A DNA stretch of 32,000 bases, taken from Planctomycetales bacterium (GTDB lineage Bacteria > 4484-113 > JAFGCY01). Below, one piece after another: positions 765 through 20,969 of this stretch. The translations under genes and the position numbers were made by a program. The stretch is taken from assembly GCA_022646745.1 (NCBI GenBank), contig CP060262.1:450001-482000 (forward strand). The letters are read 5' to 3'. Every line of letters begins with the position of its first letter. Position 1 is the first letter of the stretch. The notes below the pieces were generated by a model, which did not search any database, was not told where the DNA came from, and saw only the letters and a program-made list of their open reading frames with translations.

Positions 765-1898
765 CTACTTCTCCGCGAACTTGCCGCCGAGCTGGCCACA
801 GGCCGCCCCGACATCCTGTCCGCGTGAGCGGCGCACCGTGACCGGCACGCCCTTCGATGCCAGCAACTGCGCGAAGTGATCGATGCGATCCTCACTGGTG
901 CCACGGAAGCCGGCGGAGGGGATCGGGTTGTAGCTGATCAGGTTGACATGCACCGGCAGCGGCTGCATGCGCGCCGGCTTCTCCTGCATCTCGGCATCCA
1001 GCACCACCGGGTGGTCCTGCGGCAGGCCCTTGAAACGGGCGAAGTCCACCAGCCGGCGGGCGTCGTCATCACTGTCATTGCTGCCGCTGATCAGGGTGTA
1101 CTCGATGCTGACCTTGCCGCCGTTGACACGGCGGTAGTAGTACAGCGCCGCCATCAGCTCCATGATGTCATGCGTGGCCTCGGGCATCTGCTCGCGGCGC
1201 TTGGCCTCGGTGGTGAAGTGCAGTGACAACGCGAGGTTGACACGCGGGAATGTGTCCGCCAGCTTGAGCATCGGCTGCACGATGCCGACCGTTGACACCG
1301 TGATGCGGCGCGGGCTCCAGTTGCGTCCCTGCTCGCCGCAGAGGATCTCCACCACGCGGCGCAGCGCGCGTAGGTTCAGCAGCGGCTCACCCATCCCCAT
1401 GAACACGATGCGGTCAACGGTCTGGCCACTGTCCTGCTCGGCGAGATAGAGCTGTTGCAGGATCTCGCCCGCTGACAACCAGCTGCGCAGCCCCATGTGC
1501 CCGGTCTCGCAGAACTTGCAGGCCATCGGGCAGCCGCTCTGGGAGCTGATGCACAGCGTGCAGCCGTACTTGCTGGGCATCACGACGGATTCAATCGGGT
1601 CGTTGCCACGGGTCAGGAAGGCGTACTTGATGCTGCCGTCGCGGCTGTCCAGCCTGACAACCTGCCTGAGCGGGGCGTGGTCGAACTTCTCCGCCAGCTT
1701 CTCGCGCAGGGCTGCCGGCAGGTTGGTCATCTGCGCCGGTTCATGCACATTCTTGACGTGCAGCCAGTCGAACACCTGCTTCGCGCGGAAGGCCGGCTCA
1801 CCGAGCGCGGTGAACTCCTCCGCGAGGCGCTCCATGCTCAGGTCCAGCAGGCGGTGCTTCTGCTGCGGGGCTTCCTCTGTGAGCGGCTGCTCTACCAT
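765..1898 (-). CDS. rlmN: 23S rRNA/tRNA (adenine-C2)-methyltransferase RlmN, radical SAM
   Basis: Carries the radical-SAM CxxxCxxC motif in 'CISSQSGCPMACKFCETG', plus 'FMGMGEPLLN' and a C-terminal 'GAACGQL'. Length of 377 aa is typical for RlmN/Cfr. The start overlaps the upstream gene's stop (ATGGTAG). Confidence 0.9.
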   Translation of the reverse strand: MVEQPLTEEAPQQKHRLLDLSMERLAEEFTALGEPAFRAKQVFDWLHVKNVHEPAQMTNLPAALREKLAEKFDHAPLRQVVRLDSRDGSIKYAFLTRGNDPIESVVMPSKYGCTLCISSQSGCPMACKFCETGHMGLRSWLSAGEILQQLYLAEQDSGQTVDRIVFMGMGEPLLNLRALRRVVEILCGEQGRNWSPRRITVSTVGIVQPMLKLADTFPRVNLALSLHFTTEAKRREQMPEATHDIMELMAALYYYRRVNGGKVSIEYTLISGSNDSDDDARRLVDFARFKGLPQDHPVVLDAEMQEKPARMQPLPVHVNLISYNPIPSAGFRGTSEDRIDHFAQLLASKGVPVTVRRSRGQDVGAACGQLGGKFAEK

Positions 1899-3298
1899 TT
1901 CTCCGGATCCTCAGGCAGCGGGAAGTCCAGCCCGAGGATCTCGCCGGCCCGCTTGAGGTAGGCGGCCTGCGGGCCCTGCATGTACTTGTACATGTACTTC
2001 TTGCCGGCCAGCGTGCTGTTCTCCATGTCCTCGATCGCCAGCACGCCGAAGCGTGTCTCGTCGGTGATCAGCTTGTCACGGTACAGCTTGTTGGAAACGT
2101 CGAGGTACTGCTCGTTGAGGAAGCGGGTGGCCGCGGCCAGCTCCGAAGCTTCCTTGGAGGCCGGGTTCTGCGCTTCCTGCTGCTTGTGCAGGCACTTGAG
2201 CTGCAGGTTGAAGAAGGTGCGATCGAAGGGCTCGATACGGCCGAGTGCATAGAGCATGTACATCACCTCGCCGATGTCCTCCTTGTCCTGCGGCCAGGTG
2301 GAGGTACCGTCCACGAGGCGTACGAGCTGGTTGACGGCGAAGGGATCGAGGTTGCCCCAGTGCAGCCAGTGGTCTACATAGACCGCGCCCTCCTGGGCGG
2401 CGTATACCCTGGGGTACATGGCGTCATGGGCGTAGGGCGGCACCGGCGGCGGATAGTAGAAGCGGCCCTGCGGCTTGGCATTGCCCTTGCGCAGCTCGCG
2501 GATGATCTCCCTGATCGGCTCATCGCCGAAGTCCGGCACGTAGATCTTGGCGAGGAACAGCGCACGGCTGTAGTTGACGAAGTTGTTGTCCGGGTCGCGC
2601 TTCTCCAGCTCGTCGTAAATGTCGCTGACTTCCTTGAGGCGGGTGCGGATCGCATCCATTTCCATACCCTGGGAGCGGATCCACTCATGGGCCTGGTGCG
2701 GCTCAGTCAGGGTGTAGATCTTCATGTAGTAGAAGCGCGGCTCATCGGGCCAGATCTCAATCGCCTTATCCAGCATGTCGATCGCTTCCGTCTCGGTATC
2801 CACATACTGGGTAGCGTCGGAGTAGCGCTTGCGCGGCTTGAGGTAGACGGCGTAGGTGGCATAGTTGAGCGGGTTGTCCGGCTGGGCCTCGATCGCGCTC
2901 TTGAACAGCTGCTCCACCGTGGCATTGGTGCCGAAGATCACGGTCTGGACCTCGCCAACCACTTCCTCATAGAGCTTCTGTCCCTCGGCCTGCTCCGCCG
3001 GGTCGCTGCTTTCCTTCAGCTTCTGGGCGCGGTCGTACTTGTCCTTGACCACGAGGTAGGAAGTCTCCACCAGGAACCAGGCCTGCTGCGCGTCCTCGTG
3101 GATGTCCGTGTAGGGACGGTCAAGGTAATGCGGGTAGATCTTCGTTTCCTTCGGAACGTTGGCGTTCGCCGTATCGAAGGTGTATTCATCGCCCTTCGCC
3201 GCCTTCTGGCCACCCGAGGGGCAGGCCGCAAGGAACAGCAGGCAGAGGGCTGCGAACAGTGTGGATATGTATCTATACATCATTGCGCCGGTGTCCAT
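1892..3298 (-). CDS. hypothetical lipoprotein (helical, possibly TPR-like)
   Basis: N-terminus 'MYRYISTLFAALCLLFLAACPSGG' is a signal peptide with an L-A-A-C lipobox. Long ORF with host-like composition. The exact start is uncertain (M at 3298, 3283 or 3280). Confidence 0.65.
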   Translation of the reverse strand: MDTGAMMYRYISTLFAALCLLFLAACPSGGQKAAKGDEYTFDTANANVPKETKIYPHYLDRPYTDIHEDAQQAWFLVETSYLVVKDKYDRAQKLKESSDPAEQAEGQKLYEEVVGEVQTVIFGTNATVEQLFKSAIEAQPDNPLNYATYAVYLKPRKRYSDATQYVDTETEAIDMLDKAIEIWPDEPRFYYMKIYTLTEPHQAHEWIRSQGMEMDAIRTRLKEVSDIYDELEKRDPDNNFVNYSRALFLAKIYVPDFGDEPIREIIRELRKGNAKPQGRFYYPPPVPPYAHDAMYPRVYAAQEGAVYVDHWLHWGNLDPFAVNQLVRLVDGTSTWPQDKEDIGEVMYMLYALGRIEPFDRTFFNLQLKCLHKQQEAQNPASKEASELAAATRFLNEQYLDVSNKLYRDKLITDETRFGVLAIEDMENSTLAGKKYMYKYMQGPQAAYLKRAGEILGLDFPLPEDPEKW

Positions 3299-3367
3299 GG
3301 GATTGAGAGACCTATCAGTATAGCGTCAGAACACTGACGGGTACTCCAGTAGATGAGCTGCCAGACG

Positions 3368-4384
3368 TCAGCGCGGCAGGCTGCGTTCGAGGAATGACCA
3401 CCAGTTGGCCCCGCTGAAGCCCGCCACCCGCTCGGGGGACCAGCCCCGTGCAGCCAGGCCATCGGCCAGTTTCTGCAGGTCGCGCACGTCGTTTATGCCT
3501 TCTGGTGTGTTCTCCACGGTCAACCCGCCATCCAGGTCACTGCCGATCCCGATGTGCGCCGCGCCGGCCAGCTCCGTGACATATTCAATATGGTCCAGCG
3601 CGCGCGACAGCGGCGGCTGCGGGTCGCCGGTATGCCAGGGCTGCACGATGAACGGTGCCAGCAGCACATGCCCGACCACGCCGCGGCGCTCACCGATCTC
3701 GCGGATCTGCCAGTCCTGCAGGTTGCGCTCGATGCCCGCCAGCTCACGCGCATTGGCATGTGTGGAACAGAGCGGGCTGCGGAAGTTCTCCAGCACATCC
3801 GAGATGCCCTGGTCATTGAGGTGGGCGAGGTCAAGGATCATACCGAGTTGTTCGTACTCCCGCAGCAGCTCAAACCCGAGCTGGGTCAGTCCGCCGCCAT
3901 CACTGAAGGTGCCGCTCGCATAGCGGTTGCGCCCGTTCCATGTCAGGCCGGCCATCCGCACCCCGCGGGAGAACCAGCTGGACAGCTCACTGGGGCCGGC
4001 CAGCAGGTCGAGGCCCTCCATCAGAAGCACGATGCCGATCGGTTTCGCAGGTTGGCCATCGCGACCGGGCACATCCGGAGCCGCAGCCAGTTCCGCGAGC
4101 TCGCGGCGGCTGGTGACCAGCCTCAGTTCCTGCGGGTACTGCCCAAGCCACATGCGGTACATCTGGTACTGCTCATTGAGCATCCGCAAGCGCACTTCGC
4201 TGGGATGTTCGTGCTCGACGAACAGGGTGGCGCAGATGAGGCGCACACCGGCCTGCTGCAGCCAGCCAAGGGTGATCATGCAGCTCTTGCCGCCGGGGTC
4301 AACAAGGTCGCGGCGATGCACCTGGCAGTGCATCGCGATGTCCTGGTGGGCGTCAACGAGGAATGGACCGGCTGGCAGCGGCAT
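3368..4384 (-). CDS. membrane dipeptidase family protein (peptidase M19)
   Basis: M19 signature blocks are present: 'VDAHQDIAMH', 'GVRMAGLTWNGRNRYASG', 'ILDLAHLNDQG', 'PLCSTHANAREL' and 'GIGSDLDGG'. Confidence 0.85.
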   Translation of the reverse strand: MPLPAGPFLVDAHQDIAMHCQVHRRDLVDPGGKSCMITLGWLQQAGVRLICATLFVEHEHPSEVRLRMLNEQYQMYRMWLGQYPQELRLVTSRRELAELAAAPDVPGRDGQPAKPIGIVLLMEGLDLLAGPSELSSWFSRGVRMAGLTWNGRNRYASGTFSDGGGLTQLGFELLREYEQLGMILDLAHLNDQGISDVLENFRSPLCSTHANARELAGIERNLQDWQIREIGERRGVVGHVLLAPFIVQPWHTGDPQPPLSRALDHIEYVTELAGAAHIGIGSDLDGGLTVENTPEGINDVRDLQKLADGLAARGWSPERVAGFSGANWWSFLERSLPR

Positions 4385-6343: not shown

Positions 6344-6940
6344 CTATTCAAACGCGCTGCCAGTGGAATCCGGCAGGCGGATGAACATGTGGAACAGGCC
6401 CATCAGGCTGTCACCGGGGCAGATGTCGGTCTGCTGGTGGCAACGGATCGTGCCGTCGCCAGTCTTTTCCAGGATCATCATCCCAGGCCCGTAGTGCACC
6501 TTGTCGCCATCCTCACGCGCATAGCCCCAGTCCTTCGACAGGCTGGTATCGCGGCAGCTGAGCATGTCGAACTGCCAGCCGCGCAGCTTTGCGCCGGCCT
6601 GCTGCTGGTCCGGACGGTCATTGCTGACGAGCAGGAACTTGGCGCGCTGGCCGTACTCCCCGCTTTCGAGGTGGTGGAAGTAGCCATTGAAGCCATCCGC
6701 CCACAGTGAGCAGTACTTGCAGGCAAAGCCCATGTTGTGCACGAGCACCATCTGGCTGTGCTCGCCGAACATTTCGCTGAGCCTGACAGTGCTGCCGTCA
6801 TGGCGGGTCAGTTCGTAGTCCTGCATGGCCTGGCCGCCGAGTTGCTTCTCGATAGCTGCCATTTCCATGTTCAGCGCATTGCGCTGGTCCCATTTCGCCT
6901 TCAGCTGCTGCTTCAGGTCCTGTGTCTGTGTTGCATCCAT
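6344..6940 (-). CDS. DUF899-type thioredoxin-fold protein
   Basis: The layout 'YELTRHDGSTVRLSEMFGEHSQMVLVHNMGFACKYCSLWADGFNG...HL...AKFLLVSNDRP...GWQFDMLS' matches the DUF899 pattern, including its Cys-containing motif. ATG at 6940 is preferred over the TTG at 6964, which lies inside a palindrome. Confidence 0.6.
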   Translation of the reverse strand: MDATQTQDLKQQLKAKWDQRNALNMEMAAIEKQLGGQAMQDYELTRHDGSTVRLSEMFGEHSQMVLVHNMGFACKYCSLWADGFNGYFHHLESGEYGQRAKFLLVSNDRPDQQQAGAKLRGWQFDMLSCRDTSLSKDWGYAREDGDKVHYGPGMMILEKTGDGTIRCHQQTDICPGDSLMGLFHMFIRLPDSTGSAFE

Positions 6941-6956
6941 GGCTGGAGTATAACAC

Positions 6957-6972
6957 TTAACCAATTGGTTAA
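6957..6972. promoter_or_regulatory. perfect 16-bp palindrome TTAACCAATTGGTTAA, candidate operator upstream of the DUF899 gene
   Basis: Read directly from the sequence. It lies 17 nt upstream of the ATG at 6940, in the short xthA-DUF899 spacer. Confidence 0.3.
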
Positions 6973-6995: not shown

Positions 6996-7751
6996 CTATT
7001 TCAGTTCGATCCCCACCGGGCAGTGGTCGCTGCCATACACCTCGGGCAGGATGTAGGCCCGCTTGAGGGACTTCCCAAGCGACTGGCTGATGCAGACGTA
7101 GTCGATGCGCCAGCCGACATTGCGCTCACGTGCCCCGGCACGGAAGCTCCACCAGGAGTAGTGGCCACCCTCGTCATTGAGGTGGCGGAAGCTGTCGATG
7201 AAGCCGGCGTTGACAATGTTGTCCATTCCGGCGCGTTCCTCATCGGTGAAGCCGGCGCTGCCAACGTTCTGCTTCGGACGGGCAAGGTCGATCTCCCTGT
7301 GGGCCACGTTCAGGTCGCCGCAGAACACCACGGGCTTCTGTTCCTCAAGTTTCTTCACGTGCGAGAGGAAGTGTGGATCCCATTCCTTATGGCGGTATGG
7401 CAGGCGGCTCAGGTCATTCTTGACGTTGGGTGTGTAGACGGTCACCAGCCAGAAGTCCTTGAATTCAGCGCTGATCACACGGCCTTCGTTGTCATGCTTC
7501 GGATCCCCCATCCCGTTCAGGACATTGAGCGGCTGCTGGCGGGTCATGATCAGGGTGCCGCTGTAGCCCTTCTTCTCGGCCGGGTTCCAGAACAGCTCAT
7601 AGCCGCCCCAGTCCACATCCGGCACCTGCTCGGGCATGGCCTTGATCTCCTGCAGGCAGAGCATGTCGGCGTCCATCTCCGCCATCTTGTCCAGCAGGCC
7701 CTTGTCGAGCGCACTGCGCAGTCCGTTGACATTCCAGGATACGATTCGCAT
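6996..7751 (-). CDS. xthA: exodeoxyribonuclease III (AP endonuclease)
   Basis: 'MRIVSWNVNGLRSA...', 'CLQEIK', 'VVFCGDLNVAH', 'WRIDY' and 'GSDHCPV' are canonical ExoIII/EEP motifs. 251 aa. Confidence 0.92.
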   Translation of the reverse strand: MRIVSWNVNGLRSALDKGLLDKMAEMDADMLCLQEIKAMPEQVPDVDWGGYELFWNPAEKKGYSGTLIMTRQQPLNVLNGMGDPKHDNEGRVISAEFKDFWLVTVYTPNVKNDLSRLPYRHKEWDPHFLSHVKKLEEQKPVVFCGDLNVAHREIDLARPKQNVGSAGFTDEERAGMDNIVNAGFIDSFRHLNDEGGHYSWWSFRAGARERNVGWRIDYVCISQSLGKSLKRAYILPEVYGSDHCPVGIELK

Positions 7752-7774: not shown

Positions 7775-8164
7775 TCAGTCGTCGTCAGAATCCCGCAGGC
7801 GCTTCAGTTCACGCAGCAGATCGCGGTCACGCATGTCGAGGTCGGCCTCAGGCAGGCCGCCGTCAATGATCTCCTCCAGCTTTTCGCGACCGATCAGCTT
7901 CTCGAGGCGGCGGTCCAGCTTGTCCAGCTCGCCCTCGCTGTAACCCATCGCCACGGCGGTCTTGATCACATCCATCTTCTCGCGCGCCAGGTCACGGTAG
8001 ACATCGAGCGCCTTGTCGCGCTCAGCCCGTGTCAGGTTTGCCAGCCGCCGTTCATGGCGGCGGGCACCGGGGGTCTTGCTCGGACCGAAGATCGCGCGCG
8101 CAGCATGCACCGCAAACACGATGATCGCCACCATCAGTCCTATCTGGATCAGCTCCGGAATCAA
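7775..8164 (-). CDS. paralog 5 of a tandem family: N-terminal TM helix plus conserved cytoplasmic helical domain
   Basis: I moved the start to the in-frame TTG at 8164, preceded by GGGAGG 9 nt upstream. This removes the overlap with the upstream paralog and places the start just before the TM helix 'IPELIQIGLMVAIIVFAV', as in the other four. Conserved block: 'YRDLAREKMDVIKTAVAMGYSEGELDKLDRRLEKLIGREK'. Confidence 0.65.
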   Translation of the reverse strand: MIPELIQIGLMVAIIVFAVHAARAIFGPSKTPGARRHERRLANLTRAERDKALDVYRDLAREKMDVIKTAVAMGYSEGELDKLDRRLEKLIGREKLEEIIDGGLPEADLDMRDRDLLRELKRLRDSDDD

Positions 8165-8198
8165 ACCCCGTGCACCTCCCTGATTGTTGCCAGTTTCG

Positions 8199-8618
8199 TC
8201 ATTGCTGTCCTCCCTCAGTCTGCCTATTCCCGCTGGAGCGGCTGGCGCTGCCCGACAGGTCCTGGTCCGGCAGCTCACCGGTGGTGATTGTGGTCACGTT
8301 CACCTTTGGCTTGCCGTCTCCATCCTCCACCACACGCAGCTCCGTCAGTTCAGTCAGCTGGTGCAGGTCAGCGTGCTTCTCTATTATCCGTCCAAGCTCG
8401 GCCAGCGACTTCTCATCAGCACCGAACTGCACTGCATTGTTCAAAAGCTCGATGCGGTCCTTCATCAGCTCGCGGTAGATCTCCATCGCGCGCCGCTTGT
8501 CCAGCCGGTTGCCGAGGTGCTTGAACAGGTCCGTGATGCCGAAGAACACGCCCAGCACGGCCACCACGCCCCAGAAGCTGGTGAGGATGGTCTGGATGAT
8601 GGGCACGCTTTCAGGCAC
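8199..8618 (-). CDS. paralog 4 (most divergent) of the tandem TM-helical family
   Basis: TM helix 'IIQTILTSFWGVVAVLGVFFGI', followed by 'RRAMEIYRELMKDRIELLNNAVQFGADEKSLAELGRIIEK'. It lacks the basic C-terminal tail of the others. Confidence 0.6.
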   Translation of the reverse strand: MPESVPIIQTILTSFWGVVAVLGVFFGITDLFKHLGNRLDKRRAMEIYRELMKDRIELLNNAVQFGADEKSLAELGRIIEKHADLHQLTELTELRVVEDGDGKPKVNVTTITTGELPDQDLSGSASRSSGNRQTEGGQQ

Positions 8619-8630
8619 GATCAGAGATTA

Positions 8631-9014
8631 TCACGCATCCCGCTCACGGCGGCGCGGCCTGCGTTTGATCCGCGTCAATTCAGTGTCGATGTCCATGCTA
8701 TCGACCTCATGGCTGGCTTCTGGCACGCCGGGCTGCTTCTTGCCCAGCAGCTTTGACATCTCTCGCCGGCCGATCAGGCGTTCCAGCCGCTCATCAAGCA
8801 TGTCGATCTCATCCTCGTCGCGTCCCATCGCCACGGCGGTCTTGATCACATCGAGCTTCTCGCGCACGATGCGCTCATACATCGCGCGTGCCTCCTGGCG
8901 CTCGCGGCGCTGGAAGTAGCCACCGATGTTGCTGCTCAGGATCGCGATGATCGGGATCATCAGCGCCGTCAGCGGAATAAGCAGCCAGGAATCCCTGGCA
9001 AGTATCTCTATCAT
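8631..9014 (-). CDS. paralog 3 of the tandem TM-helical family
   Basis: TM helix 'WLLIPLTALMIPIIAIL', followed by 'EARAMYERIVREKLDVIKTAVAMGRDEDEIDMLDERLERLIGRRE' and the basic tail 'KRRPRRRERDA'. Confidence 0.7.
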   Translation of the reverse strand: MIEILARDSWLLIPLTALMIPIIAILSSNIGGYFQRRERQEARAMYERIVREKLDVIKTAVAMGRDEDEIDMLDERLERLIGRREMSKLLGKKQPGVPEASHEVDSMDIDTELTRIKRRPRRRERDA

Positions 9015-9052
9015 TTCCTCAACCTGTGCCGGCCACCTGTGGTGGCGTTAAT

Positions 9053-9388
9053 CTAAATCTCGGCTTCGCGCCTGCGGTGCCGGCGGATCACGCGCTGTAG
9101 ATCGTACGCCAGATCGCCGCCCTCTTCAAGTGCCGTTTCCATTCCGCTGAAGCGTTCACGGCCGATCAGCCGCATCAGGCGGGAGTCCAGCCGCCCGAGA
9201 TCCTCCTCGTTGTAGCCAGCATCAATCGCACTGCGCAGGATCTCGAGCTTCTCGAGGATGATGCGCTCCTGGCTCTCGCGCTCGGCGCGGCGCAGGGATA
9301 TCTCGCTGTTGCGGAAATAGACCTTATAGAACGTGATGCTTGATGTCAGTATCAGCGTCAGGAACAAAAGCACTTCACCTTCATGCAT
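9053..9388 (-). CDS. paralog 2 of the tandem TM-helical family
   Basis: TM helix 'VLLFLTLILTSSITFY', followed by 'ERIILEKLEILRSAIDAGYNEEDLGRLDSRLMRLIGRER' and the basic tail 'RRHRRREAEI'. Confidence 0.7.
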   Translation of the reverse strand: MHEGEVLLFLTLILTSSITFYKVYFRNSEISLRRAERESQERIILEKLEILRSAIDAGYNEEDLGRLDSRLMRLIGRERFSGMETALEEGGDLAYDLQRVIRRHRRREAEI

Positions 9389-9417
9389 TGCAGAATCCCT
9401 CCGGGCCCTGTGGACGA

Positions 9418-9816
9418 TTACATCTCGGAACGTTCAATCTGACGCTTTAGTTCGCGTTCCTGTTTCCGCCGGCGGCGCTCAATGATGTCCTCCACCTCAT
9501 CCTCGAGGATGTCCATTTCGCGGTCCTCCGGGGCCACGGGCACATTCTTAATATTTGATCCGGCAAGCTTGAGCATCTCCTGCTGGCCGATCAGGTTCTG
9601 CAGGCGGCGGTCCAGGCGGGCCACTTCGCGGTCGTCGAAACCCGCTTCCAGCGCGGTCTGGATCACCAGCAGGCGGTCCTGCACGATCTGCGAATACATA
9701 TCCCGCGCCTCACGGCGCTCCTTCATGGCCATCACGCGCAGGTAGACGATGGTGCCGGGGATGCTGAGCATCATCAATGTGCCGCCGAGAATTCCGAGTA
9801 CTGCTTCGATATCCAT
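9418..9816 (-). CDS. paralog 1 of the tandem TM-helical family
   Basis: TM helix 'VLGILGGTLMMLSIPGTIVYL', followed by 'EARDMYSQIVQDRLLVIQTALEAGFDDREVARLDRRLQNLIGQQE' and the basic tail 'RRRRKQERELKR'. Confidence 0.7.
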   Translation of the reverse strand: MDIEAVLGILGGTLMMLSIPGTIVYLRVMAMKERREARDMYSQIVQDRLLVIQTALEAGFDDREVARLDRRLQNLIGQQEMLKLAGSNIKNVPVAPEDREMDILEDEVEDIIERRRRKQERELKRQIERSEM

Positions 9817-9869
9817 AATTGCTCCCTGCCGATCTGAAATGAACGGGCTTATCCCTGTCCCCCAGGAGC

Positions 9870-9898
9870 ATATTACAACGATTATTGAGTTTATGCAA
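9870..9898 (-). promoter_or_regulatory. candidate sigma70-like promoter for the five-paralog array
   Basis: On the minus strand: TTGCAT (9898-9893), a 17-nt spacer, then TAATAT (9875-9870). It sits in the AT-rich intergenic stretch upstream of the 9816 start. Whether the sigma70 consensus applies in this lineage is unknown. Confidence 0.3.
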
Positions 9899-9962
9899 GT
9901 ACTTTCTTAATAATTCGAATGTCAAACTTCATATTTTTCAATTTATCAGGCTAATCAACCAT

Positions 9963-11183
9963 TTACTTTTCAATTTTAATACTATTGCGGTCCACACTGA
10001 CCGTGAACTCAAGTGCGCTCTTCTCACCTTCCCGGTCATCCCGTGCGTTGTAGGGCACGATGCGGTAGGTCCAGCGCTGCGGGCGGTCATTGCGCATCAC
10101 GTCATCATCCATGTAGCGGTATTCAGTGCGGCGGATCGGGTTCCACTCCTTCGGGCGGTGGATGCTCATCGGCATGATCGGGTAGCTGCGGTGCGGCAGC
10201 AGCACCTCGCGGTTGCGCGGCTCCTCGGCCTTGCGCCGGTAGATCCGGTAGCCGCTGAGCAGGTTGCCGTAGTTCTGGTCCATCAGCCAGATGTCCTTGT
10301 AGTTCACCTCGCCGTCGCGATTGCCGTCCGGGTGCCAGTCCCAGTCGTCCTCGCGGCCATCGGTGGAGACGTAGCCATAGCGCCGGCCGACGGGCACCAT
10401 GTCGCAGATGTTGACCTCGCCGTCATTGTTGAGGTCGCCGACGTTGCGCTCCTCCCACCACAGCACGAGGCAGTCACAGTCCGGGTCTGGGTAGACCGTG
10501 AATTCCTCGATGATGTTGTGCGTGCCGCTCGGGGCGTTGTCCAGCCAGTGCGGCTTCTGGTCGGCGGGCCGCTCGTTGAACCAGAACTCCGCGAACACTC
10601 CCTCGGTGAACTTGATGCCGCCGTTCACATCGGGGCGGATGCGGGTCATTCCCGCCGTGACGACGCCCGGCAGGTCCTGGCGCTCGTACCACAGGCGGTC
10701 GCCCTCCTTGCCGAACAGGCTGCCGGGTTCGATGCGCTCGGGGTCCCAGCGCTCCTGGTGGTAGCGCACGTAGACCAGCAGGTCGTAAAGCTCCGGGGCA
10801 TCCAGCAGCGTGACGACCAGGTGGTAGTCGCCATCGTCAAGGTCACGCCCGGTCAGCACGATGTTGTCATTGAGCACGGTGGTGGGCTGGCCGAAGTCAT
10901 CCAGCACCCAGAGCGTGAAGCCATCGAGGTGCTTGCCAAGCGAGGTGTCCCATTCGTAGAAGCTCGGCTTGTTGAGTTCCTCGAGCGTGGGCGGCACTTC
11001 AAAGTTGCCTTCCTTCTCGGGGTAGCGCGAAACGAAGCGCCCGACCGGGTGGATCGGGTAACCCACGCTGAACGGTGGCGCGCCCCAGGCCAGGGTGTAC
11101 AGCGCAATCGCCAGCACGACCGTGCCGGCAATCCGCCATGCCCCATGGATCCTGCGCCTCACGCCCACAATGTTATCAGTCAC
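9963..11183 (-). CDS. secreted or membrane-anchored protein with a dockerin-like double EF-hand repeat and a C-terminal FN3-like domain
   Basis: Signal or anchor sequence 'RRRIHGAWRIAGTVVLAIALYTLAWG'. Two dockerin-type repeats, 'DLNNDGEVNICDMVPVGRRYG' and 'DGNRDGEVNYKDIWLMDQNYG' (nt ~10266-10439). FN3-like C-terminus: 'GYRIYRR...WTYRIVPYNARDDREGEKS'. The annotated start is GTG; a second in-frame GTG 7 codons downstream is also possible. Confidence 0.7.
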   Translation of the reverse strand: MTDNIVGVRRRIHGAWRIAGTVVLAIALYTLAWGAPPFSVGYPIHPVGRFVSRYPEKEGNFEVPPTLEELNKPSFYEWDTSLGKHLDGFTLWVLDDFGQPTTVLNDNIVLTGRDLDDGDYHLVVTLLDAPELYDLLVYVRYHQERWDPERIEPGSLFGKEGDRLWYERQDLPGVVTAGMTRIRPDVNGGIKFTEGVFAEFWFNERPADQKPHWLDNAPSGTHNIIEEFTVYPDPDCDCLVLWWEERNVGDLNNDGEVNICDMVPVGRRYGYVSTDGREDDWDWHPDGNRDGEVNYKDIWLMDQNYGNLLSGYRIYRRKAEEPRNREVLLPHRSYPIMPMSIHRPKEWNPIRRTEYRYMDDDVMRNDRPQRWTYRIVPYNARDDREGEKSALEFTVSVDRNSIKIEK

Positions 11184-15925: not shown

Positions 15926-16026
15926 CAGACGACAGACTTCAGACCTCAGACGACAGATCTTTAATAGTTCCGTACTGCTTCAAAGCCACGGATTGCCCAT
16001 CTGGCGTCTGGGGTCTGATGTCTGGC
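15926..16026. repeat. heptad-armed hairpin repeat 'A'
   Basis: CAGACGA CAGACTT CAGACCT CAGACGA CAGAT, a ~40-nt loop, then ATCTGGC GTCTGGG GTCTGAT GTCTGG. Hand pairing gives ~26 bp with 2 mismatches and 1 wobble. The loop's 3' end, CACGGATTGCCCATCTG, resembles the loop of repeat B. Confidence 0.75.
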
Positions 16027-16221
16027 TTGCAACTCGCATCCGCTCGACTGCCGCGAGGTCTATCAAACGGTTTTGTCAACGCGGAGTCGCTGAGACGCGG
16101 AGAAATCCAATCCTCGTTGCTTGATCATTGAGCTAACTACAATCGTTTCGGGTAATCGAACAATGAACCCCCCACGCCTGCGGCGTGCTGCGCGGCCTCC
16201 TGCCTTGCCGGGATGAATAGT

Positions 16222-16328
16222 CAGATCCCAGACTTTAGACATCAGACTACAGATCCGCACGCGAACCACCCTGCATCAATGCACCGATTGCCATTCTGAT
16301 GTCCGGAGTCTGTTGTCTAATGTCAGAC
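16222..16328. repeat. heptad-armed hairpin repeat 'B' (degenerate)
   Basis: CAGATCC CAGACTT TAGACAT CAGACTA CAGATCC, a ~40-nt loop ending CACCGATTGCCATTCTG, then GAT GTCCGGA GTCTGTT GTCTAAT GTCAGAC. The cores pair; the spacers mostly do not. Confidence 0.65.
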
Positions 16329-16404
16329 AAGCCGCCGGACATTCCGGGTGGGTATCGAAGCGCAGCTGAGATCCACGGGCGGGAATGGCGGACATGCCAG
16401 CCCT

Positions 16405-18818
16405 CACATACTTAACTTAGTTTCTAAGCACTTGAAGATAAAATGTGTATAACTGGTTTGTATTTCCACTTACCTCTTTCAGAATCGTCATACTAGGAAT
16501 TCAAACTAACTAACATTTGCTGTTCGCATTAGCTTGAACATCTAAGTGTTGAGATATTTTTCAAGTAAAATTAGAATTATTGGCACTGGTATAGTAAACA
16601 ATAATACCCTCGAAACCGAAATTAATGGATTCAAAAAATTCTTGAACCACTCCAGCTCTCGAATACATGAAATTTTATTTCCAATTGTCACTATTGCAAA
16701 TAGAGAAGCCCCAAATAACAAGAGACAACAAGGTATAACAGCGAACAATATTTTTACATTACTATTTAAGTCAAGAGTGTACATAAAAAACGGCATCCAA
16801 TAATTCACAGAAGCCAGCACTGCAACCTGTACTCCTGTCAAGACAAACACAGATAAGACAAGATAAATTATTCTACTTGGAAGTTTGGCATAATAATCCA
16901 ATTTTTCATCTTTTCTCTTATCTTCTCCTGATAATGCTTCAATAGTTGCGCTGCTTTTTTGAGACTCTGTTCTTAGTATATCTAGTTGTTCCTTATGCTC
17001 CTGCAGCTCTTTCTGTGCTTCAAGAAGTTTAGTCTTCATTGAGATTGCTTCAGCGCTACTCTGCTCAGCCGACCTTCGAAGTAAGTCTCGCTCAGCACCA
17101 GTTTTGAGCAATTCTTCGGAAATAGTGTCGTTTACCAATGCTACCGCACGAGAATCATCAATTTCATTGTTAATTCTTGAACGCAAGCCGTCGTTTACTA
17201 ACACGCTAGTCATAATGTCTTCACCAAGATCATCGATATTTTCTTGTCGAGATAAAATATTGATGATTTTGTGAGCGGTGTCTTTTGTATCCTCATCGCT
17301 TGACATACCGAGAATTGGCAATTGCACATAACCAATTATCGCTTTATCTAACGCAACTTGTCGAGGTATCCAGAATTGAAGCAAGTTTGCTATGGCAGTA
17401 GGATAGACGCAACTTGAAACTCTTGATCCATTTTTTGCTTGCATTTCCAAATCAAATCCAATGAGCTTTCTATCAAGAGTCACAATCCAGTATTTTGCTT
17501 CGAGTGGAGACTCAACATCAAATCCCCTAGCTTCCCTTACTTTTTGAAACAAAAACATGTCATGATCGGCTCTGTCATATGCTTTTTGCTCATCAAGTTG
17601 TCGATTCATCCTCATTAATCTTTCTTTGTAAGATTCAATTAAATTCAGTTGGAATTGTGCTACTGTTGCCTCTTTTCTAGTAATGGGCATTATCGTAAAG
17701 CCAAATTTCTTTGTTAACACTGTCTTTAGATCTGTTGAGTAAGGTTTTAATATTTCAACTGGATTTGCAGCTTTACCAGTTGCAATTACTTTATCTGCAA
17801 CAATCTTGTAGAAATCTGAATAACCTGACTTTAATATTATTCTTGCAAGTTTGACATCAATTATTCCCTTCTGAGTATTCAGACACAACCATTGAATATG
17901 GGATGCAATTTCTCCCAGTGTTTTTTGCGATATCATCAATCTGTAATTTACACTGCCTCTTACAGCACGTAGCAATTCCATAAGAGAGATGATTGATGAA
18001 TGCGCTGGATGCAAACTAAGCCCCATCGCTGATAAAGCAACATTTGTATCAACATATATATGGAATTCTGGCTTATTTCCTAACTGCGCCTGAATGTGAT
18101 TAAGTGCTTCAATCGAAAGTGAATTTGCCTGGTAAACGAATGAAGCATGCGTGAAAGTAGCTAAGTATGTCGAAACTGCTGCATTTGAAGAAAGTAAAAA
18201 TTGAGCAACTGCTCTACATATAACCTCTCGTTCCTTCTCAGTTTCATAATTCGAGAGGAACGTTGTCAAATCGGTCGAATCATCGAATGTGAATTTTCCA
18301 TTCAAAATGTACTCAAAAGTGGAAACACTATTCCTTGCAAATAACGGAACCAGAAATTGCTCAAGAAACATATCCCAATGTGCATTTTGTGGGTCTAGTC
18401 CTGAGCCCAGAATTGCCTGCAGATATGTTTGTTTGGCCTGTTCTTCAATAGTTAAGTAATGAACTAAATCGTCACTGTATTCCTTTTTAGTTTCCGGTGA
18501 TAACAAATATTTCTTTGATCTTCTTATAAAACGAGTTATTTTTTCCCTTTCGAGATTTTTGCAAATGTTTTCTACTTCCAAGTATTCCAATCTAATGTTG
18601 TATGCGGTCTGTAGAAATTCAATGATTTCTTGAAAACTCAGTTCTTTCTCTGCGCTGAATAGTGCTGCAATGACAAATTGCGTCTTAGCCTTGTTCCACC
18701 ACATGCTCTTGTTTAATTTTACATGAGCGGCGCACTCAATAAATTGGGGCGAAAGAATCTGTCTTTGATTTAGAGTCATAAATGTAACAACTTTACCACA
18801 TTTTTATTACAGTTTACC
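16405..18818. other. compositionally foreign AT-rich islet (putative horizontally acquired insertion), single gene
   Basis: Sampled 60-nt lines are ~32% G+C inside and ~65% just right of 18819. The right edge coincides with the uvrB stop. The left edge (~16405) is less sharp. I saw no integrase, tRNA or flanking direct repeat. Confidence 0.7.
16542..18779 (-). CDS. 745-aa multidomain protein: N-terminal winged-helix-like region, PIN-like nuclease domain, coiled coil, 3-4 C-terminal TM helices
   Basis: The only long ORF in the islet, with an ATG start. Residues 239-249 'FHIYVDTNVAL' match the PIN beta1 motif. Later acidic motifs are 'RADHDMF' (403-409) and 'WIVTLDRKL' (431-439). wHTH-like 'ELSFQEIIEFLQTAYNIRLEYLEVENICKNLEREKITRFIRRSKKYLLSPE'. 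Charged coiled coil at ~560-630. Hydrophobic helices at ~634-660, 676-699 and 722-739. Confidence 0.8.
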   Translation of the reverse strand: MTLNQRQILSPQFIECAAHVKLNKSMWWNKAKTQFVIAALFSAEKELSFQEIIEFLQTAYNIRLEYLEVENICKNLEREKITRFIRRSKKYLLSPETKKEYSDDLVHYLTIEEQAKQTYLQAILGSGLDPQNAHWDMFLEQFLVPLFARNSVSTFEYILNGKFTFDDSTDLTTFLSNYETEKEREVICRAVAQFLLSSNAAVSTYLATFTHASFVYQANSLSIEALNHIQAQLGNKPEFHIYVDTNVALSAMGLSLHPAHSSIISLMELLRAVRGSVNYRLMISQKTLGEIASHIQWLCLNTQKGIIDVKLARIILKSGYSDFYKIVADKVIATGKAANPVEILKPYSTDLKTVLTKKFGFTIMPITRKEATVAQFQLNLIESYKERLMRMNRQLDEQKAYDRADHDMFLFQKVREARGFDVESPLEAKYWIVTLDRKLIGFDLEMQAKNGSRVSSCVYPTAIANLLQFWIPRQVALDKAIIGYVQLPILGMSSDEDTKDTAHKIINILSRQENIDDLGEDIMTSVLVNDGLRSRINNEIDDSRAVALVNDTISEELLKTGAERDLLRRSAEQSSAEAISMKTKLLEAQKELQEHKEQLDILRTESQKSSATIEALSGEDKRKDEKLDYYAKLPSRIIYLVLSVFVLTGVQVAVLASVNYWMPFFMYTLDLNSNVKILFAVIPCCLLLFGASLFAIVTIGNKISCIRELEWFKNFLNPLISVSRVLLFTIPVPIILILLEKYLNT

Positions 18819-20969
18819 CTACCCCACCTTCCCCCGGTTCGCCCCTTCGCTCTTCATCTTGCGGGCCATCTTCTTCGTCAGCGCGTCCACCTGGTCGCGC
18901 ACCAGTGCGGCTTTTTCGAACTCCAGCAGTTCCGCCCACTTGTGCATCTGCGCCTCCAGCTCGGCGACCAGCATTGTCAGTTCGCCGATGCCCATCGCGT
19001 CATGTTCGTCCGGGATGCTCGCCTGGGCGACCTTGATCACCTTCAGGCCGCTTTCCTCCAGCCCTTCCGTGATGTCCTGGATCTTCTTGATGATGGTCTT
19101 CGGCGTGATGCCGTGCTCCTCGTTGAAGGCCAGCTGGATGTCGCGGCGGCGGTTCGTCTCGTCTATCGCGCGCTGCATCGAGGGCGTGATCTTGTCAGCG
19201 TAGAGAATCACCTCACCGTTCACGTTGCGGGCTGCGCGGCCGATGATCTGGATCAGCGAGCGGTCCGAGCGCAGGAAGCCTTCCTTGTCGGCGTCGAGGA
19301 TGCAGATCAGCGAGACCTCTGGCAGGTCGAGGCCCTCCCGCAGCAGGTTGATGCCGACCACCACGTCGTAGGTGCCGAGCCGCAGGTCCTTCAGGATGCG
19401 GATGCGCTCCACGGTGTCAACGTCCGCATGCAGGTACTGCGTCTTCACGCCGCTGTCAGACAGGTAGTCGCTGAGCTTCTCCGCCATGCGCTTCGTGAGC
19501 GTCGTCACCAGTGTGCGCTCGCCGCGCTCGATGCGCCCGCGCACCCGCTCCAAGAGGTCGTCAATCTGGTGCTTGGTGGGCTCGATCACGATCTGCGGGT
19601 CCACGAGCCCGGTCGGGCGGATGATCTGCTCGGCGGTGTTTTCAGTCACCTGCAGTTCATAGGGCCCGGGCGTGGCGGTGGTGTAGATCACCTGGTTGAC
19701 ATACTTCTCCCACTCGTCGAAGCGCAGCGGGCGGTTGTCAAGCGCGCTTGGCAACCTGAAGCCGAAGTCGACGAGTGTCTGCTTGCGCGAGCGGTCGCCG
19801 TTGTACATGCCGTGCAGCTGCGGGATGGTCACATGGCTCTCGTCAATGATCATCAGGAAGTCGTCGGGGAAGTATTCGATCAGGTTTGACGGCGTCTCGC
19901 CCGGCATGCGGCCGTCGAAGTGCCGCGAGTAGTTCTCGATGCCGTTGCAGTAGCCGACGTTCTCGATCATCTCAATGTCGAAGTGCACGCGCTCCTTCAG
20001 GCGCTGGTACTCTAGGAGCTTGCCCTCCTTCTCAAACTTCGCCAGCTGCTCACGGGCCTCGCGGCGGATGCTCTTGATGGCCAGCTCCTGCTTCTCGGGG
20101 ATCAGCACGTAGTGCGTGGCCGGGAAGACGTAGGCCTTCTCCAGCTGCTCCTGCTCCTTCATCGTGACCGGGTCGACGCGGGCGATGCGCTCCAGCTCGT
20201 CGCCGAAGAACTCGAGGCGCAGGATCTCCTCCTTGTCGGCGGAGAAGATCTCGAACACATCGCCCTGCACGCGGAAGGAACCGCGCACCAGCTCGTAGGA
20301 GTTGCGCATGTACTGCATGTCAACCAGGCGGCGGATCAGGTGCTCTCGCCGCACCTCGAAGCCGGGGAACAGCCTGAGGCTGAGCTTCTCGTAGTCCTCG
20401 GGCGAGCCGAGGCCGAAGATGCAGGACACGCTGGCAACGACGATCACATCACGCCGGGTCAGCAGCGCCTCGGTGGCGCTGTGGCGCAGGCGGTCGATCT
20501 CCTCGTTGATCTGGCTGTCCTTCTCGATATAGGTGTCGGTCTTCGGGATGTAGGCCTCGGGCTGGTAGTAGTCGTAGTAGGAGACGAAGTACTCCACGTG
20601 GTTCTCGGGGAAGAACTGGCGGAATTCGGCGCAGAGCTGGGCCGCCAGCGTCTTGTTGTGGCAGATCACGAGCGTGGGCTTCTGGGTGGCCTGGATCACG
20701 TTGGCCATGGTGAAGGTCTTGCCGGTGCCGGTCGCGCCGAGCAGCACCTGGTGCTTCAGCTCACGGCCGACGCCGTCCACCAACGAGGCGATCGCCGTCG
20801 GCTGGTCACCGCCGGGGGTGTAGTCCGCCGCCAGCCTGAACTCACCCTCACGCTGCCAGAAATCGGCCTCCACGGCCGCCGCGCCGAACACATCCTCATT
20901 GACGGGATCGTCACCGGGCAGGCGATGCTGCTCGTCCTCGGATACCTTCCACTTCTTCGCCTTGGGCAT
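18819..20969 (-). CDS. uvrB: excinuclease ABC subunit B
   Basis: '[10 protein letters not shown]', Walker A '[15 protein letters not shown]', helicase motifs and a C-terminal UVR domain '[28 protein letters not shown]'. The ~40-aa N-terminal extension may reflect a later true start (in-frame GTG codons exist). Confidence 0.95.

Follow-up and report, generated by a model that had tools for sequence, protein, structure and literature searches.

What is a row of five small membrane-protein genes for in a planctomycete genome: do the products work together in one assembly, does each of them serve on its own, or are they the amplified copies of a diversifying cassette? The question is raised by five consecutive minus-strand genes in a 32,000-nucleotide (nt) stretch of contig CP060262.1 (assembly GCA_022646745.1, Planctomycetales bacterium, positions 450,001 to 482,000), which we call the window; a first-pass annotation, made from the letters alone, had reported them as a tandem array of paralogs of no recognised family. 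Planctomycetota have unusual envelopes, and their cell organisation, FtsZ-independent division and membrane-architecture proteins are poorly explained, so lineage-specific conserved membrane proteins are obvious candidates for envelope architecture and division in these bacteria. The reading that we favour, to which we give a probability of roughly 45% as a whole, is that the five proteins would be ordered subunits of a hetero-oligomeric inner-membrane complex, docking through their C-terminal tails and tied to an exported partner protein encoded upstream; in this best explanation the five genes would form one transcription unit and the family would be confined to uncultured Planctomycetota.

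All five genes are in the list of open reading frames (ORFs) at the place first reported (Table 1). The last one is listed as an ORF of 167 amino acids (aa) at 7775-8278, which from its GTG at 8278 overlaps gene 4. On reading the DNA we find GGGAGG at 8175-8180, nine nt ahead of an in-frame TTG at 8164, and this TTG, just ahead of the transmembrane (TM) segment, is the likely start of paralog 5, which would therefore be 129 aa long and preceded by a 34-nt spacer. With this start the spacers between the genes measure 29, 38, 12 and 34 nt, in agreement with the 12-38 nt given originally. Shine-Dalgarno (SD)-like sequences lie ahead of genes 1, 2, 3 and 5, and paralog 4, with no obvious SD, begins 12 nt past gene 3. 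The GC content over the array genes is ordinary and AT-richness is confined to the intergenic stretch upstream.

Table 1. Features of the array and of its surroundings. Positions are those of the window unless another locus is named; dN/dS values, between orthologs, are approximate because dS is near saturation; HMM, hidden Markov model.
Feature	Positions	Strand	Product or element	Family HMM (bits)	C-terminal tail	dN/dS	Tail positions identical in 3 genomes	Remarks
paralog 1	9418-9816	minus	132 aa	107	LEDEVEDIIERRRRKQERELKRQI	0.12-0.29	27/46	first array gene; predicted N-out/C-in bitopic; tail conserved among orthologs
paralog 2	9053-9388	minus	111 aa	82	LAYDL.RVIRRHRRR	0.18-0.22	16/26	shortest copy
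paralog 3	8631-9014	minus	127 aa	176	IKRRPRRRERDA	0.16-0.38	15/36	nearest family consensus ('EAR' type)
paralog 4	8199-8618	minus	139 aa, GTG start			0.29-0.40	5/46 (core 46/58)	most divergent copy
paralog 5	7775-8164	minus	129 aa from TTG 8164 (likely start)		GGLPEADLDMRDRDLLRELKRLR	0.16-0.19	24/28	'KAL' subtype; tail almost invariant
partner gene	9963-11183	minus	406 aa					signal peptide, cohesin-like beta-sandwich, dockerin-like repeat, FN3-like C-terminal domain
AT-rich intergenic region	9817-9962	minus						holds array promoter candidate
-35-like element	9898-9893	minus	TTGCAT					17-nt spacer to -10-like element
-10-like element	9875-9870	minus	TAATAT					hexamer and flanks align with L001
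xthA	6996-7751	minus	ExoIII-type Exo_endo_phos					E 3.6e-28
DsbD-type transporter genes	L002 12185-14269; L003 963-3689; L015 3865-5973; L039 4534-5694; L041 1403-3769							
M19/TPR-like/RlmN block	L013 11311-14419; window 765-4384; L002 4484-8126; L014 6234-9834							

Judged by sequence comparison, the array proteins are a real, narrow and sharply conserved family without library annotation. A word-seeded search of 5.8 billion proteins returned 25 relatives of paralog 3, nearly all unnamed or called "hypothetical protein", one of them bearing a JGI ABC-transporter label that is evidently spurious. These 25 and the five paralogs were combined in a profile (alignment A2), which was run exhaustively over 1.84 billion representatives at 50% identity and found 141 clusters at E ≤ 1e-3, of which 129 at E ≤ 1e-10. 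Nearly all of the 141 hits are 60-180 aa long, with no fusion to other domains. The five window ORFs score 82-176 bits with the family HMM, of which all five are part, and independent homologs are found in dozens of metagenome contigs. Among GTDB species representatives, the family occurs only in metagenome-assembled genomes labelled Planctomycetales or "bacterium", and no relative is present among 2.9 million viral contigs.

The proteins had not been recognised at first sight, and the libraries bear this out. None of the five paralogs reaches a curated threshold in Pfam or NCBIfam (hmmscan, E ≤ 1); against PADLOC they give a single chance-level match (E 0.014) and against PHROGs a weak holin match of paralog 1 is the best (E 0.04). 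A profile search of the PDB with alignment A2 (best E 0.51) and a Foldseek search of the PDB with the model of paralog 3 (best E 7) gave nothing significant, and Rfam and tRNA scans of the window found nothing. For remote similarity, 121 members were compared one by one with Pfam at E ≤ 10 and the 25 most recurrent families were listed; ABC_membrane appears weakly in seven members, and in the one alignment shown it spans the TM segment and the first cytoplasmic helix. A SHOCT-like reading, from the pattern L..L...G....E....K..LL, was dropped, there being no SHOCT match for the window proteins at E ≤ 1 nor any among those 25 families.

A MAFFT alignment of the five paralogs gives the common block ER.EAR..YERIV.EKLDVIKTAVAMGY...EL..LD.RLE.LIG. 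It is weakest in paralog 4, where LD.RLE.LIG is lost, and in paralog 2 the juxtamembrane ER.EAR motif is shortened by a deletion of four residues. Over 121 sequences the near-invariant columns are, in paralog 3 numbering, K53, A60, G64, L73, D74, R76, L77 and G82; paralog 4 is without D74, R76, L77 and G82, keeps the other core residues and clusters inside the family. The features that mark the family (EKLDVIKTAVAMG / LD.RLE.LIG, with one N-terminal TM segment, a positive-inside juxtamembrane stretch and the core residues) are seen in the window proteins, apart from the core residues lost in paralog 4. Topology statistics were drawn from 85 members carrying the core motif, with a hydrophobic window of 19 residues. 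One TM segment with a mean hydropathy of at least 1.6 is found in 77 of them and a second one in none; the hydrophobic window begins at residue 6 on average, and the mean number of K and R is 4.1 in the 15 residues past the TM segment against 0.3 ahead of it. The positive-inside rule is obeyed by 82 of the 85, which supports the prediction that the family is a reverse signal-anchor, with its N-terminus out and its C-terminal domain in the cytoplasm.

An AlphaFold2 (AF2) monomer of paralog 3, modelled with alignment A2 as input, has a mean predicted local distance difference test (pLDDT) score of 68 and a predicted TM-score (pTM) of 0.39, with pLDDT 79-89 across residues 41-80. In this model an unbroken helix, residues 9-62, takes in the TM segment and the juxtamembrane ER.EAR..YERIV.EKLDVIKTAVAM; it is followed by a turn at MG(R/Y)D (residues 63-66, MGRD in paralog 3), a return helix at 67-81 (EL..LD.RLE.LI), a short helix at 83-90, a disordered Pro-containing linker and a short amphipathic helix at 109-117 ahead of the basic end. 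Charge is laid out in a regular manner along the family, +2 in the juxtamembrane stretch, neutral in helix 1 and −2 in helix 2 (4.7 D/E against 2.7 K/R), and 74 of the 85 members have a tail with an acidic first half, 63 a net basic charge over the last 12 residues.

Much of the first-pass description of these proteins stands: a single hydrophobic segment followed by a K/R cluster, a common block present in all five copies and weakest in paralog 4 (alignment, family HMM and independent homologs agree) and, by the positive-inside rule, a cytoplasmic helical domain, which holds family-wide. Its statement that four of the five have acidic-then-basic tails was generous and is roughly right; such tails, Arg-rich at the end, are clear in paralogs 1, 2 and 3, partial in paralog 5, which has RELKRLR yet ends in DSDDD, and absent from paralog 4, whose tail is neither conserved nor basic. 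The only long hit of the family profile, P0158 (1044 aa), was rejected as a member, since only the helix-2 pattern is matched in this eukaryote-like repeat protein. It has at least seven repeats of TRERVTKIYQQYNP.KL.DVDKVLEK[FY]AGRDQELIEMLEEKY and a weak match to the helix-2/helix-3 pattern (E 9e-7 summed over repeats), a resemblance that is probably convergent helix-turn-helix (HTH) periodicity and not homology.

The history of the copies bears directly on whether they act together. Copy numbers, taken from an HMM scan of all the fetched loci, are five in the window, L001, L011, L016 and L022, four in L002, three in L004, L005, L015, L018, L023 and L025, two in L014, L019, L020, L026, L029 and L030, and one in more than 20 loci; the fivefold amplification noted at the outset is real, and it is only one state of a family of one to five copies. 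Neighbour-joining trees of the core make the five window paralogs one-to-one positional orthologs of the L001 and L011 copies: paralog 1 goes with L001.1 and L011.1, and paralog 4, on a long branch, yet has orthologs in both. Paralog 5 falls into a 'KAL' last-gene clade with L004.3, L005.3, L014.2, L019.2, L020.2 and L026.2, and in this set of arrays, which takes in two- and three-copy ones from distant lineages, the subtype always closes the row. L002, L016, L022 and L025 make up a second lineage, in which four subtypes follow one another in a constant order peculiar to it, and the DRA.ARALYER clade consists of solo genes only.

Between orthologs, the ratio of nonsynonymous to synonymous substitution rates (dN/dS) stays within 0.12-0.40 in each of the five paralogs and peaks in paralog 4, with dS at about 0.7-1.5; by this measure all five are under purifying selection. 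TM segments and tails vary among paralogs and are kept within ortholog groups (Table 1). Taken together, these comparisons favour copies that would be old, specialised and non-redundant.

The AT-rich region ahead of the array had been credited with promoter-like hexamers, and comparison upholds them. Over 9790-9990 the GC content is only 36%, whereas the window as a whole has about 62%. TTGCAT and TAATAT in the window, and TTGCAA and TAGAAT in L001, stand 17 nt apart, and both loci then have a leader of about 50-60 nt with an SD sequence, which in the window is GGGAG 5 nt ahead of the ATG at 9816. At other loci equivalent elements were found: the strict motif TG[CT]TA[GA]AAT precedes ten arrays and two solo genes, in the intergenic DNA ahead of the first family member, and TGGTAGAAT takes this place at five further loci (four arrays, one solo). 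The strict motif occurs 17 times in the 830 kb of sequence compared (both strands), 12 of them at this position. It corresponds to an extended -10 consensus and ends 6-9 nt ahead of the ATG or GTG, therefore a leaderless or near-leaderless mRNA is predicted. The comparison supports a promoter of the array's own in every lineage.

Two further observations concern these promoters. The leader shares a conserved stretch just after the -10 element in the two sequences available, CTCCTGGGGGACAGGGATAAG in the window (9817-9870) and CTCCTTGGGAAAAGGGATTAAG in L001 (about 9125-9186), and it has no Rfam match. The leaderless layout itself was discarded as a special feature of the array, the same layout being present at several unrelated window genes: -10-like hexamers (TATACT, TATAAT, TAGAAT), in many cases preceded by TG, stop 6-8 nt short of the ATG in the M19 peptidase, DUF899-like, xthA and uvrB genes (minus-strand starts at 4384, 6940, 7751 and 20969), within the 6-9 nt seen overall. 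From the placement of its element, the start of the DUF899-like gene was moved from the TTG at 6964 to the ATG at 6940. A -10 element close to the start is also seen at the first family gene of L002, L014, L016, L019, L023, L026, L030, L044 and L049, and the layout suggests that leaderless mRNAs may be widespread in the lineage of the window.

When all ORFs at most 6 kb from family genes were clustered, one dominant neighbour came out, the partner gene upstream of the array. The first-pass annotation had offered xthA as relevant context and had not mentioned this gene, which is the conserved neighbour instead. If an E below 1e-60 to the partner HMM is required of a true ortholog, 11 of the 14 arrays that could be assessed have one upstream in the same orientation, directly adjacent in nine and with one opposite-strand gene inserted in two, and none of about ten assessable solo genes has one nearby. 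The linkage persists though partner identity drops to 44% and the other flanks are rearranged. The partner family is as a whole narrow and unannotated, with 41 hits at 44-81% identity.

The partner has an N-terminal signal peptide, and AxA-type cleavage sites are present in most of its homologs (alignment A4). Its AF2 model (pLDDT 77, pTM 0.75; beta-sandwich with pLDDT 82-95 over residues 71-180) was matched by Foldseek to the cohesin and FN3 entry 2w1n with E 2e-5 and to many type I and II cohesins with a probability of 1.0 and a target TM-score of about 0.45-0.55; its likeness to the nine-stranded beta-sandwich (jelly-roll) of cohesins is at fold level only. Pfam cohesin gives no match for the window protein, and Dockerin_1 (PF00404), with its cutoff at 22.9 bits, gives it 20.5; three partner homologs have a precomputed PF00404 match. 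The dockerin-like, putatively Ca-binding repeat of the window protein reads GDLNNDGEV...DGNRDGEVN, and its GD.NNDGEV and D.D motifs are invariant in alignment A4. The partner is thus a compact exported protein that has both a predicted cohesin-like fold and a dockerin-like repeat, along with an FN3 domain; self-binding in cis or head-to-tail polymerisation would be conceivable.

Non-cellulosomal cohesin and dockerin proteins, unlinked to cellulose degradation, have been noted in Planctomycetes in the 'planctosome' proposal (PMC6461901), which is also the sole related item in the literature searched; no description of the membrane-protein family was found, and the proposal covers neither the partner nor its linkage to the array. 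Planctosome proteins, like the partner, are exported planctomycete proteins that unite cohesin and dockerin modules; as published (PMC6461901) they are large multi-domain anchor or adaptor proteins in Nemodlikiaceae, whereas the partner is compact, at 400 aa, and its narrow family is a distinct one. A linkage of such a protein to arrays of bitopic membrane proteins is not described in the literature searched.

In the hetero-oligomeric arrangement that we favour, each subunit would have a very short N-terminus outside, one TM helix and a basic juxtamembrane stretch continuing this helix; the chain would turn at (A)MG(Y) into a net-acidic return helix (LD.RLE.LIG) and a short third helix, and would end, past a Pro-containing linker, in a paralog-specific amphipathic, acidic-then-basic tail. 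TM and hairpin helices would hold the subunits together in an inner-membrane complex of defined composition, and the family would have grown from one or two copies through duplication, in the manner of ATP-synthase b/b' or TatA/B/E. A hetero-oligomer, one of the two readings offered in the first-pass annotation, would fit the data. Docking of neighbouring subunits or of cytoplasmic clients may be the role of the conserved tails, and the Arg-rich end of one subunit may bind the acidic helix-2 face of its neighbour. With the exported cohesin-dockerin-FN3 protein, the complex would then make up the cytoplasmic-membrane part of an envelope-associated assembly. A fixed subtype order, tight operon-like spacing and a single promoter are more typical of the subunits of a stoichiometric complex.

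Several observations weigh against this arrangement. The promoter stands between the partner and the array, which are therefore separate transcription units. In L015, L018 and L019, three of the arrays, the 1.3-4 kb of upstream sequence available holds no true partner. In L013 a partner gene has no adjacent array and is followed by PilB-like (MshEN and T2SSE) and PilT-like ATPases, the genome bearing a solo family gene elsewhere, and a JGI contig has a partner and then a Band_7 protein, again with no adjacent array; partner-array adjacency could in part be mere inherited gene order. Solo copies are common, therefore one subunit type can suffice. The AF2 confidence for the paralog 3 monomer is moderate, and dN/dS was computed on stop-to-stop ORFs including a few upstream codons, with dS near saturation.

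Known families of similar build help to place the proteins. The b and b' subunits of ATP synthase (PF00430) are also small and bitopic, with an N-terminal TM segment and a long continuing cytoplasmic helix, and they are encoded by adjacent diverged paralogs and form a hetero-dimer of fixed composition; one of the 121 members matches ATP-synt_B below threshold (E 0.0077). The window proteins differ in being shorter and in their hairpin at the MG(Y) turn, third helix, Pro-linker and acidic/basic tails, and no atp genes are present in the window or the examined loci. TatA, TatB and TatE (PF02416) likewise have a single N-out TM segment, a cytoplasmic amphipathic helix and a charged tail with an acidic patch, and are paralogs by duplication, with tandem genes and hetero-oligomers. 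MttA_Hcf106, however, has no match among the window proteins at E ≤ 1 nor a place among the 25 recurrent families, the Tat hinge F-G...KLP is absent after the TM segment (alignments A2 and A3), where ER.EAR is found instead, the modelled cytoplasmic helix of paralog 3 runs straight from the TM segment and not along the membrane, and there is no tatC nearby.

A faint PspB-like layout had been remarked on at first, with the caution that the sequence did not support it, and the caution was right. PspB (PF06667) is likewise small, bitopic and N-out/C-in, and its cytoplasmic segment is helical or coiled-coil, but it has about 75 aa and is without the hairpin, linker and tail of the window proteins; its HMM matches none of the five paralogs (Pfam, NCBIfam, E ≤ 1) and does not figure in the list of recurrent families, and the Pfam-annotated window neighbours include neither pspA nor pspC. 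The remaining likeness is to UBA-like modules (PF07223 DUF1421, PF22567 UBA_9), with their helix, M-G-(F/Y) loop, helix and short helix. Beyond the TM region no other weak Pfam similarity recurs across members, and all these matches lie far below the curated thresholds: DUF1421 in seven of the 121 (best E 0.026) and UBA_9 in two (best E 0.13). Helix 2 of the family is longer than in UBA domains and helix 1 is within a 54-residue TM-continuous helix, and neither Foldseek nor the PDB profile search recovered UBA domains. At the level of sequence, the family thus stands alone, with an architecture of a familiar general kind.

The same evidence can be read in other ways. Each paralog may be a separate tether or homo-oligomer whose tail recruits or regulates a cytoplasmic or membrane client of its own, the copies being co-encoded through tandem duplication. 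The solo genes, which form clades of their own and show one subunit type to be functional alone, fit such independent adaptors well, as do copy numbers from one to five, TM segments that differ strongly between paralogs, and tails that are the most paralog-specific part and are yet kept within ortholog groups. We consider this rather unlikely all the same, in view of a subtype order that is kept over long distances, the tight spacing and the single promoter; moreover, paralog 4, whose core is kept while its tail drifts freely, is unlike what a tail-centred function for every copy would give. It is improbable that the proteins are membrane-tethered regulators in which the TA.AMG(Y)S..EL block is a three-helix HTH- or UBA-like module, binding or sequestering at the membrane a regulatory partner such as a nucleic acid, a ubiquitin-like protein or another protein. 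The recurrent DUF1421 and UBA_9 matches, isolated weak matches to HTH_65, MerD and TetR and the AF2 model, where two helices joined by a turn at the conserved G are followed by a short third one, would agree with it, and the A-x3-G spacing with its hydrophobic positions is, as we take it, close to the classical HTH or the UBA 'MGF/MGY loop' pattern, which serves as a lead only. Against this, no curated threshold is reached, the structural searches stay at E ≥ 0.5 (PDB profile) and E ≥ 7 (Foldseek), the model has helix 1 continuous with the TM segment, unlike a compact UBA domain, and the net acidity of the would-be recognition helix (mean −2, 4.7 D/E) speaks against DNA binding.

The first-pass annotation had also left room for a diversifying family, and a cassette of this kind, diversifying or selfish, could hold genes of immunity or toxin-antitoxin systems, holin-like genes or genes of phage origin, their amplification being driven by diversifying selection. 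Tandem amplification with copies diverged to 15-38% identity with paralog 3 would suit it, small membrane proteins are common in such systems, and there is the weak holin match of paralog 1. However, rapid diversification is disfavoured by the positional orthologs in three genomes, the low dN/dS of all copies and the subtype order kept across lineages; with no significant PADLOC or PHROG match, no viral relative, housekeeping genes as flanks and an ordinary base composition over the array genes, the cassette is hardly credible any longer and is largely refuted.

If the module of array and partner proves to be an ordinary scaffold, the gain will be the annotation of a new domain family. The family (about 141 clusters at 50% identity, with a 45-residue conserved core) and the partner, whose genomic linkage is statistically clear, are in any case a concrete module for experimenters and modellers, and the partner adds a further case of non-cellulosomal cohesin-dockerin use. 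A bolder version, which we regard as distinctly improbable, would have an ordered ring or chain of two to five distinct bitopic subunits, each Arg-rich tail docked on the acidic helix-2 face of the next subunit, as a platform on the cytoplasmic face, coupled across the inner membrane to a self-associating periplasmic partner in a Planctomycetota-specific trans-envelope assembly without a described counterpart; if true, planctomycete cell biology would gain a new component, an envelope or cytoskeletal scaffold of a new kind.

On the downstream side, xthA does follow on the strand of the array, as first reported, and is of the ExoIII type; its adjacency is limited to the closest relatives (the window, L001 and probably L011), and it has its own -10 element 8 nt ahead of its ATG, therefore it need not be co-transcribed with the array. 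On these two grounds it was rejected as a functional partner. The window neighbours recognised by Pfam are ExoIII, DUF899/AhpC-like, cohesin-dockerin, MiaB-like, M19 and RlmN.

Other recurrent downstream genes, of DsbD type (about 6-7 loci) and for a dCMP-deaminase (four loci), are each found within one lineage and were treated as inherited synteny. The DsbD-type transporter (DsbD_N, DsbD_TM and thioredoxin) lies 0.1-1.2 kb downstream of family genes in its lineage, usually after a conserved 270-aa ORF. A thioredoxin-fold DUF899/AhpC-like gene is found in the window at 6344-6964, two genes downstream of the array, and the redox theme near the array may be coincidence or inherited synteny. A block of M19 dipeptidase, TPR-like and RlmN genes adjoins the partner gene in L002, L013, L014 and L026; in the window it lies across the array from that gene, at a distance of about 5 kb, and this points to local rearrangement.

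Farther off, at 16000-19000, the window has a block of about 3 kb with 38-43% GC, against about 62% for the window. It holds a minus-strand ORF of 745 aa (16542-18779) with no Pfam match and with chance-level PADLOC and PHROG matches. The gap between uvrB and a 201-aa ORF is about 1.4 kb in the syntenic L001 and 2.8 kb in the window, and the block looks like a horizontally acquired insertion.

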